Shown: one piece after another, positions 50,763-51,070 of the stretch | Layout of the letters: the number at the start of each line of letters is the position of its first letter | Position numbering within the stretch: position 1 is the stretch's first letter | Assembly: GCA_900553405.1 (NCBI GenBank) | Contig: USDF01000002.1 | Span: forward strand, 1 to 56,351 | Reading direction: 5' to 3' | DNA: 56,351 nt | Source of the DNA: an uncultured Clostridium sp. | Lineage (GTDB): Bacteria; Bacillota; Clostridia; TANB77; CAG-508 | The notes under the pieces: generated by a model | Databases searched by the model: none | What the model was told of the DNA's origin: nothing | The model's input: the letters and a program-made list of their open reading frames with translations, nothing else | Made by a program: the position numbers and the translations under genes

Positions 50763-51070
50763 TGGTGGGCAGGGATGGATTCGAACCATCGTACTCGTAT
50801 GAGAACAGATTTCTTACTACTATAGTTTTCACTACCATTAAAATGTTTGTAGTCTGGACTTTCTCTTTATCTCTTTCGAGATACCAGGTATAAAGTCTCT
50901 ACACTCGGAACTAAAATTCCTAGCTCGGGATTGTCATAAGTATTTCTACTCTTAGAGTTCCCCGAATTAGCCCGGTTTTCATCTTACCATTACTGATAAG
51001 AGCTGCAATTTAGGTTTTGATTAAACCAAAGACCACAGTCTGCCGCCTTTAGCCACTCGGCCACCTACCC
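50763..51070 (-). tRNA. tRNA-Tyr (GUA) interrupted in the anticodon loop by a group I intron
   Basis: 5' exon 51070-51035 is GGGTAGGTGGCCGAGTGGCTAAAGGCGGCAGACTGT. 3' exon 50812-50763 is AAATCTGTTCTCATACGAGTACGATGGTTCGAATCCATCCCTGCCCACCA. Joined, they give a type II cloverleaf with loop CUGUAAA. Confidence 0.85.
50813..51034 (-). ncRNA. Group I intron (IC3-like, tRNA type), 222 nt, no internal ORF
   Basis: Core strings resemble the tRNA-Leu/Ile introns as I recall them: AAAACCUAAAU, CAAUCCCGAGCUAGG, GUGUAGAGACU and UAAAGAGAAAGUCC. Pairings: UUCGGG/CCCGAG (P4), GAGUA-GAAA-UACUU (P5), GGAA/UUCC (P6), GACUU/AAGUC (P7), AUCUC-GAAA-GAGAU (P8). The upstream exon ends in U and the intron ends in G. 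Confidence 0.8.

Follow-up and report, generated by a model that had tools for sequence, protein, structure and literature searches.

Whether a bacterial tRNA gene that is interrupted in its anticodon loop can still be in use, and how the interrupting sequence might travel between genomes, are questions raised by a tRNA-Tyr(GUA) gene on contig USDF01000002.1 (GenBank assembly GCA_900553405.1) of an uncultured Clostridium sp. The window, i.e., the whole stretch of DNA analysed (56,351 nucleotides (nt); G+C content 26.6%), carries this gene on the minus strand as exon 1, a 222-nt intron and exon 2 (51070..50763). With a probability of roughly 0.85, we read the locus as a functional split tRNA-Tyr gene containing a group I intron without an open reading frame (ORF), linked to a gene for an I-Ssp6803I-like endonuclease with which the intron would take part in collaborative (trans) homing.

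Exon 1 (51035..51070, minus strand, 36 nt; GGGUAGGUGGCCGAGUGGCUAAAGGCGGCAGACUGU) ends in ...GACUGU at U35 of the anticodon loop (CUGU|) and is followed by the intron (50813..51034, minus strand; GGUCUUUGG...GUAGUAAG), which starts with GGU, ends with AAG, has its terminal G at 50813 and contains no ORF. Exon 2 (50763..50812, minus strand, 50 nt; AAAUCUGUUCUCAUACGAGUACGAUGGUUCGAAUCCAUCCCUGCCCACCA) starts with AAAUCUGU and supplies A36, the remainder of the anticodon arm, the long variable arm, the T arm, the acceptor strand and an encoded CCA. A split tRNA-Tyr(GUA) at 50763-51070, with a long variable arm and an encoded CCA, had been proposed in an earlier note made from the sequence alone, and ARAGORN agrees when introns are allowed: its call is tRNA-Tyr(gta) i(37,222). 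Once joined, the exons fold cleanly into an 86-nt type II cloverleaf in which the anticodon is GUA, the variable arm is long and the 3' end is CCA. A 62-amino acid (aa) ORF overlapping exon 2 and the intron (50650..50838, minus strand) is taken as spurious.

The ends of the insert can be read from a natural allele. A neighbouring 278-aa protein was looked up in public assemblies, which led to human-gut metagenome contigs of the same organism; an identical split tRNA-Tyr gene is present in five of them. In contig L003 (ERZ15610074), which belongs to the same species, tRNA-Tyr is uninterrupted, with window base 51035 joined directly to 50812; its flanks are 98.6% (upstream) and 96% (downstream) identical to those of the window, and exactly 51034..50813 is missing. 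The 222 nt therefore constitute a discrete insertion/deletion unit with precisely the predicted ends, and the survey for intron-less alleles that had been suggested beforehand thus fixes both ends of the proposed 222-nt insert to the base.

With regard to the nature of the insert, the Rfam model Intron_gpI (RF00028) matches 50832..51032 on the minus strand with 46.1 bits and an E-value of 1.4e-10 over model positions 1-253 (E-value mode, 601-nt search). Such a search had also been proposed in the earlier note, and it returned a highly significant match whose score nevertheless lies below the gathering score of the model (50 bits). Default annotation misses the intron because 46.1 bits sits just under that gathering score: at the gathering threshold, Rfam called two plain tRNAs only in the whole window. 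Default ARAGORN likewise missed the split gene, calling a tRNA-Met (51097..51173) and, elsewhere in the window, a tRNA-Leu. Together with the P1-P9 fold described below, the Rfam match rules out both a group II intron and a protein-spliced tRNA intron of the archaeal/eukaryotic type.

Homologous loci were gathered from GTDB species genomes with a pattern taken from the 3' domain of the intron, which yielded at least 119 loci, the host genomes being mainly those of uncultured gut Clostridia or Bacilli. Among the matches listed, the interrupted genes are tRNA-Tyr(GUA) (at least 45), tRNA-Thr(UGU) (at least 26) and tRNA-Leu(UAA) (at least 19), as well as several Arg, Met, Ser, Ala and Phe tRNA genes. 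In this same list, the junctions GACUGU| and AAG|AAAUCU occur in 45/45 tRNA-Tyr introns, which are 61-97% identical to the window intron, while the tRNA-Thr introns reach at most 61%.

A fold comprising P1 to P9a was placed on the window sequence, guided by the seed alignment of bacterial tRNA introns of Williams 2020 (bioRxiv 10.1101/2020.01.27.920355), and its pairs were counted on a MAFFT alignment of 44 homologous tRNA-Tyr introns, in which P5a and distal P1 are misaligned for the window row. In this alignment 88.4% of the cells assigned to pairs are indeed paired, compared to 35-43% after shifting the partners by 1-3 columns, while 28 pairs exhibit changes on both sides, compared to 15.1 +/- 1.8 in shuffles (0/500 reach 28) and 4-13 with shifted partners.

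The elements of this fold, all on the minus strand, begin with P1 (51003..51038), in which exon CUGU and intron GGU (51038..51032) pair with the guide AUUGCAG (51009..51003), with the 5' splice site at a U.G pair; a distal extension, GGUUU/AAACC, joins 51027..51023 to 51017..51013. The U.G, G-C and U-A pairs are each kept in 44/44 sequences and the C-G pair in 43/44, with an invariant GCAG guide. The earlier note had found no convincing P1 and had offered GCAG at intron nt 28-31 as its best candidate; GCAG does act as the guide in the pairing of AUUGCAG with CUGU|GGU, albeit at intron nt 29-32, and the doubt concerning P1 is resolved by this pairing. Two U residues directly 5' of GCAG are also invariant among homologues and could pair with A+1 and A+2 of exon 2 as a short P10.

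P2 (50982..51001; 8 bp with a GUAA tetraloop) shows changes on both sides at 8/8 pairs, with 99.4% of its cells paired. P3 (50976..50971 with 50888..50883, delimiting a domain at 50883..50976) has three pairs with both-side changes and encloses P4, P5/P5a and P6/P6a. Of these, P4 (50965..50960 with 50930..50925) is 100% paired and essentially invariant, P5/P5a (50956..50934; UCUAAG...UAUGA, with a GAAA loop) resembles the 11-nt tetraloop-receptor motif and has an outer P5 pair that alternates between UA and CG in 11 sequences, and P6/P6a (50924..50903) contains four P6a pairs with both-side changes. The P7 pseudoknot (50856..50899) joins G50899 and GACU (50897..50894) to AGUCC (50860..50856), with a bulged A50898, and encloses P3', P8 and J8/7; it is invariant and paired in 44/44 sequences, and the intron hence displays the conserved core P3-P8 with its P3/P7 pseudoknot and G-C guanosine-binding pair. 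P8 (AUCUC-GAAA-GAGAU, 50882..50869) adds three pairs with both-side changes. In the P9 region (50813..50853), ACUAC (50853..50849) pairs with GUAGU (50820..50816) and is followed by AAG with the terminal G, while the inner hairpin P9a (GUAGU-GAAA-ACUAU, 50835..50822) shows compensatory changes at two pairs, which are seen in phage introns too. The conservation of P9/P9a in the collected set is partly by construction, because the 3' domain was the search pattern. The intron-final AAG| is present in 45/45 homologues among the matches listed. The group I identity put forward in the earlier note is thereby upheld, as are the details on which it had been based: the quoted strings AAACCUAAA, CAAUCCCGAGCUAGG, GUGUAGAGACU and UAAAGAGAAAGUCC are all present, GAAA loops cap P5a and P8, and the exon-final U and intron-final G are kept throughout.

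Selection on the exons speaks to the first of the two questions. The spliced exons of 46 species fall into 17 different sequences, among which compensatory changes occur both in the T stem (GAUGG/CCAUC to GAAGG/CCUUC) and in the acceptor stem (GGGUAGG/CCUGCCC to GGACAGG/CCUGUCC), whereas the 20-nt anticodon arm is invariant in 46/46 species; the tRNA-Tyr gene is therefore in use. A tRNA-Met(CAU) gene (51097..51173, minus strand) lies directly upstream, the Met-Tyr pair being kept in most homologous loci, and some 20 nt upstream of tRNA-Met lies TTGACA-17-TATAAT (51194..51222, minus strand; 12/12 matches), which is likely the promoter of a tRNA-Met/tRNA-Tyr transcript. On the other side, a terminator-like hairpin, AAAAACAAG-GAGA-CUUGUUUUU followed by a U run (50735..50761, minus strand), was read from the sequence; it is too A+U-rich for the scan tool and was not called by the terminator scan, and it is kept in many homologous loci.

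These data also bear on the possibility that the locus is a dead tRNA-Tyr pseudogene with an inactive intron relic, the cell being served by a second, intact tRNA-Tyr gene elsewhere. The Rfam score under the gathering cut-off would suit such a relic, and the search for tRNA-Tyr covered the 56-kilobase (kb) window only; within it, default ARAGORN found no second tRNA-Tyr. A relic would not, however, be expected to keep exons that form a perfect cloverleaf in 46 species, with compensatory changes, nor an intron core with covariation in which the U.G pair, the terminal G and P7 are invariant, nor a consensus promoter upstream. As the compensatory exon changes and the perfect upstream promoter make a pseudogene very unlikely, we regard this explanation as scarcely credible, and hold with great confidence that the locus represents a functional group I intron in tRNA-Tyr.

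The intron is presumed to be self-splicing, and the following path would account for the elements described. tRNA-Tyr would be co-transcribed with tRNA-Met from the consensus promoter, and the intron, which interrupts the anticodon loop between U35 and A36, would fold into P1-P9. The guide AUUGCAG would pair with exon CUGU and intron GGU, setting the U.G wobble at the 5' splice site, which an external guanosine would then attack. The terminal G (50813) would next occupy the same binding site in P7, and exon ligation would restore the CUGUAAA anticodon loop, with exon anticodon-stem pairing and the 2-bp P10 probably aiding exon alignment.

The classical hosts of bacterial tRNA group I introns are tRNA-Leu, tRNA-fMet, tRNA-Ile and tRNA-Arg (tRNAscan-SE 2.0 paper), and the earlier note was not aware of a described tRNA-Tyr host in a sporulating Firmicute. 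Such a host had, however, been catalogued already. The bioinformatic survey of Williams 2020 widened the hosts to 21 tRNA/site combinations, and its seed alignment includes 'Mba143.Tyr.4Ug', i.e., a tRNA-Tyr intron at anticodon-loop position 4, with U at -1 and a terminal G; the tRNA-Tyr host is therefore not new, and introns of this kind were found here in at least 45 species genomes, mostly those of uncultured gut Firmicutes. The host site falls under the class Tyr.4Ug of that catalogue, of which the window intron is a further member. Mba143.Tyr.4Ug shares with the window intron the host gene, the site CUGU|AAA, the U at -1, the terminal G, the GCAG guide and a similar P2, but it differs in its P3-P6 sequence and has a 3' domain consisting of one simple P9 hairpin. 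The window P9, ACUAC...GUAGU with an inner GAAA hairpin, is instead organized as in the Leu.3Ug, fMet.2Ug and Thr.3Ug seeds of that alignment.

Resemblance to better-known introns is also apparent. The IC3 introns of Azoarcus tRNA-Ile(CAU) and of Anabaena/cyanobacterial tRNA-Leu(UAA) are, like the window intron, ~200-250 nt long, ORF-less and located in the anticodon loop; their core strings AAUUCGGGGAA, CAAUCCCGAGC, GUGUAGAGACU and AGUCCAG are nearly identical to those of the window, they likewise have GNRA loops on P2 and P9, and in both cases P5 contains a sequence resembling the CCUAAG/UAUGG tetraloop-receptor motif. They occupy another tRNA and another loop position, however, and the window host is a low-G+C uncultured gut Clostridia member. 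The intron core resembles IC3-type bacterial tRNA introns, a likeness of core strings and not a formal subclass assignment.

The second question, how such an intron spreads, leads to the gene that follows. A free-standing 126-aa ORF (50273..50653), which the earlier note does not mention, starts 109 nt past the 3' end of tRNA-Tyr; it too is on the minus strand, has its own AGGAGG ribosome-binding site and encodes a PD-(D/E)XK endonuclease homologous to I-Ssp6803I. It matches Pfam PDDEXK_5 (PF11645) with 66.1 bits (cut-off 26.1; E-value 4e-18), and its only match in the PDB is I-Ssp6803I itself (2OST; E-value 8e-5 in the single-sequence search, improving to 3e-9 when a 27-sequence profile was used), the profile alignment spanning residues 6-108. 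Residues D39, Q52 and K54 are invariant in 27 homologues and align with the YDL...VQVK segment of 2OST, such that the protein is predicted from its sequence to be an I-Ssp6803I-like PD-(D/E)XK endonuclease. A chance ORF is ruled out by 60-79% protein identity over ~30 species genomes. AlphaFold2 on the single 126-aa sequence gave no usable model (predicted local distance difference test score 38). I-Ssp6803I, which stems from the tRNA-fMet intron of Synechocystis PCC 6803, likewise possesses the D...QxK motif and is linked to a group I intron situated in the anticodon loop of a tRNA, but it is encoded inside its intron, whereas the window gene stands on its own behind the tRNA, at a distance of 109 nt, and thus not within the intron it would mobilise; the host tRNA and phylum also differ. 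Of note, a second perfect TTGACA-17-TATAAT (50346..50374, minus strand), located within the 3' portion of this ORF, points towards a convergent transglycosylase gene.

The association of this gene with the intron was examined from both directions. Starting from the introns, ~29 tRNA-Tyr intron loci among the matches listed (three of them cut at the contig start) have a downstream endonuclease gene, whose products are 60-79% identical to that of the window; the gene lies on the same strand, 57-108 nt downstream of tRNA-Tyr, with a few copies farther away. No such gene follows the tRNA-Thr (0/26) or tRNA-Leu (0/19) intron loci among the matches listed. Starting from the endonuclease, metagenomes were searched with a protein profile, and 67 loci had enough upstream sequence: an intron-bearing tRNA-Tyr lies directly upstream in 50/67 and an intron-less tRNA-Tyr in 4/67, while no tRNA-Tyr was called upstream in 13/67, two of which (L135 and L169) nevertheless carry the intron. 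In both samplings together, the endonuclease occupies the same place in ~80 loci. The linkage of endonuclease and intron is tight, and it accompanies the endonuclease homology, intron ends, covarying fold and exon selection observed above.

In some genomes the two elements are merged, and in others one or both have decayed. In L048, a Bacilli metagenome-assembled genome, the P1 loop of the homologous intron contains the endonuclease gene, which has a GGAGG ribosome-binding site 12 nt past the 5' splice site, and in L071 a 31%-identical homologue resides inside a tRNA-Arg(UCU) intron. L038, whose intron is 97% identical to that of the window, has kept the intron and lost 306 bp from within the endonuclease ORF; L003 lacks the intron and has also lost 269 bp of this ORF; and in-frame stops are present in the gene in L108 and L179. 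The deletions in L003 and L038 both remove the promoter-like sequence at 50346..50374. L003 furthermore harbours a 2.67-kb insert (9420-12085 of that contig) right after the tRNA-Tyr CCA and ahead of the endonuclease remnant, with two ORFs (120 and 94 aa) as well as a gene for a PemK-family toxin, resembling a small island at a tRNA 3' end.

It could be argued that the intron is immobile and vertically inherited, and that the PD-(D/E)XK gene is an unrelated neighbour, e.g., a Holliday-junction-resolvase-like or defence nuclease, given that PD-(D/E)XK folds serve many functions, that the structure of I-Ssp6803I itself resembles archaeal Hjc (PMC3384342), and that the intron has no ORF and many intron-bearing loci lack the endonuclease. 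This is improbable: the gene follows the intron-bearing tRNA-Tyr in ~80 loci, across species whose versions of the protein share just 60-80% identity, is never found behind the related introns of tRNA-Thr or tRNA-Leu among the matches listed, lies within the intron in L048, has a homing endonuclease as its sole sequence relative in the PDB, and shows the patchy presence, absence and decay that a selfish gene would show. We consider it somewhat more likely than not that the adjacent gene encodes a homing endonuclease to which the intron owes, or owed, its spread.

An ORF-less intron beside a free-standing endonuclease gene, recurring in ~29 species-genome and 50 metagenome loci, has the appearance of collaborative homing, in this case on a bacterial chromosome. 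Most likely, the endonuclease would cut at, or close to, tRNA-Tyr loci that lack the intron and/or the endonuclease gene, and repair from the donor copy would transfer the endonuclease gene together with the linked intron, the composite and degenerate forms in related genomes then representing stages of a homing cycle. A more specific version is advanced tentatively, at odds that fall somewhat short of even: the endonuclease may cut the anticodon-arm DNA of intron-less tRNA-Tyr, with the ORF-less intron restoring the tRNA and shielding the gene, L048 representing the finished composite mobile intron, and the same logic applying to an HNH endonuclease at tRNA-Thr(UGU).

The latter system was encountered as a side observation. 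A free-standing HNH endonuclease ORF of ~130 aa occurs downstream of intron-bearing tRNA-Thr(UGU), at a distance of 53-94 nt in the full-length cases (L016, L022, L032, L070 and L103), with N-terminally truncated versions in L033 and L044; it lies between tRNA-Thr and a conserved short-chain dehydrogenase gene and is absent from the other tRNA-Thr intron loci. This arrangement parallels that of tRNA-Tyr and the PD-(D/E)XK gene with another enzyme family.

A different target is conceivable, namely that the endonuclease cuts endonuclease-less alleles in the 3' flank of tRNA-Tyr (intronless homing) and that the intron, ~150 bp away, is co-converted, as with T4 MobE, the trans homing of which provides a published precedent (PMC2790892). 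A 3'-flank target would be compatible with the intact endonuclease genes beside intron-less tRNA-Tyr in four loci, with the cassette of terminator, ACRAACAAAAGTT and endonuclease also being found behind other sequences ending in CACCA, and with ACRAACAAAAGTT lying ~40 nt past the CCA in 6/18 endonuclease-less loci. It sits less well with the relative I-Ssp6803I, which recognises the anticodon stem-loop DNA of the intron-less tRNA gene (PMC3384342), with the presence of the same gene family inside the homologous intron of L048 and the tRNA-Arg intron of L071, or with the 20-bp anticodon arm being invariant in 46/46 species, and we consider it rather unlikely.

The motif ACRAACAAAAGTT itself is located at 50709..50721 (minus strand), ~40 nt past the tRNA-Tyr CCA, with the same offset in L038, L083, L090, L100, L120 and others; it sits 38-43 nt past the tRNA-Tyr 3' end in 14/26 endonuclease loci and in the 6/18 endonuclease-less loci just mentioned, and endonuclease genes in other contexts are preceded by it as well. 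The motif could serve as a promoter or leader of the endonuclease gene or as half of a target site, or it could be left over from the loss of the gene.

Several observations weigh against the account favoured here, in which a functional split gene and its linked endonuclease engage in collaborative homing. The Rfam match, although far beyond chance, falls short of the gathering score, and the set of homologous loci is a biased sample because it was collected with the intron's own 3'-domain pattern. Approximately 15 intron-bearing tRNA-Tyr loci among the matches listed have no endonuclease gene, and approximately 10 endonuclease loci occur in other contexts. Above all, in the metagenome contigs L133, L146, L195 and L197 an endonuclease gene that appears intact lies 71-76 nt downstream of a tRNA-Tyr without an intron, which calls for caution on the homing interpretation. 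The anticodon stem differs in L146, but L133, L195 and L197 keep the invariant anticodon arm, and an invariant arm next to an intact gene speaks against an active enzyme that cuts this arm; assembly chimeras, or a target in the downstream flank, are alternatives for these four loci.

A 2014 review (PMC3984707) describes collaborative or trans homing, by which composite mobile introns are proposed to arise, for two phage systems only. The psbA intron of cyanophage S-PM2 with F-CphI, and the T4 nrdB intron and I-TevIII with MobE, resemble the window in having an ORF-less intron beside a free-standing endonuclease gene, but they concern phage protein-coding genes and other endonuclease families, whereas the window combines a bacterial chromosome, a tRNA gene and a PD-(D/E)XK enzyme. 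Unlike the phage cases, the tRNA-Tyr loci offer natural examples of all intermediate states. T4 MobE reportedly brings about co-conversion of the neighbouring defunct nrdB intron. The accessible text of Williams 2020 does not mention neighbouring endonuclease genes, and in the literature searched no description was found of a free-standing endonuclease beside a bacterial tRNA intron. The linked free-standing I-Ssp6803I-like gene adds a new form to a mobility scheme already known, and of all parts of the locus it holds the most interest; such an adjoining homing-endonuclease-like gene suggests how introns of this type spread.

The consequences extend to genome annotation. Dozens of metagenome-assembled genomes of gut Clostridia and Bacilli will seem to lack tRNA-Tyr or tRNA-Thr because default tRNA finders and the Rfam gathering score both miss such genes, and tRNA counts, as well as the genome-quality calls that depend on them, are distorted by the missed split genes. 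If the gene is the sole tRNA-Tyr gene of its host, every tyrosine codon depends on ribozyme activity, which would make the intron a possible selective target. Related species, partly belonging to one species complex, display the intron with the endonuclease, the intron with a decayed endonuclease, a decayed endonuclease with no intron, and the endonuclease inside the intron (in the Bacilli metagenome-assembled genome); since these natural stages are present, the merger model is directly testable with defined DNA substrates. If the endonuclease target does lie at the insertion site, endonuclease-driven spread of introns through tRNA genes would be common and ongoing in uncultured gut Firmicutes.

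With respect to phages, the 3' 60 nt of the intron shares 82-84% identity with group I introns interrupting phage capsid genes, DnaB genes and a phage tRNA-Arg, this being the only part of the intron that matched in a search of phage GenBank entries. The shared domain, AGUCCAGACYACAAA...GGUAnnGAAAnnUAUAGU, is common to the window intron and the phage capsid/DnaB introns (L008-L012), some of which bear GIY-YIG endonuclease genes; an Rfam E-value scan of the fetched phage-intron loci returned nothing. The same 3' domain occurs in at least 120 viral contigs (IMG/VR, L212 and later), mostly within tRNA-Leu(UAA), and ARAGORN labelled twelve viral loci 'tRNA-Tyr(ata)', probably owing to misplaced splice sites. 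Among the matches listed in this IMG/VR intron-pattern scan (at least 120 loci), none has a tRNA-Tyr(GUA) host or a PDDEXK_5 gene, and there is therefore no evidence for phages carrying this module.

Some endonuclease copies follow sequences other than tRNA-Tyr. In L143, L158, L159 and L179, an RNA-like sequence of ~125 nt takes the place of tRNA-Tyr ~130 nt before the endonuclease gene. It opens with a promoter-like segment and contains a long hairpin as well as a mini-helix resembling a tRNA (GUGCGU...UUCGAAU...ACGCAC-CA), and the same terminator comes after it; an Rfam E-value scan of this sequence gave no match. A second type of non-tRNA-Tyr upstream sequence is found in L164, L200, L206 and L209. 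Finally, a reverse transcriptase gene (RVT_1) and bAvd, typical of a diversity-generating retroelement, are present at 538-2415 of L001 (also in L002, L003 and L006) alongside a gene for a small MutS_I-domain protein; these genes belong to the same organism, lie ~8 kb from the tRNA locus and are situated beyond the high-coordinate end of the window, past mreB (55288..56295).

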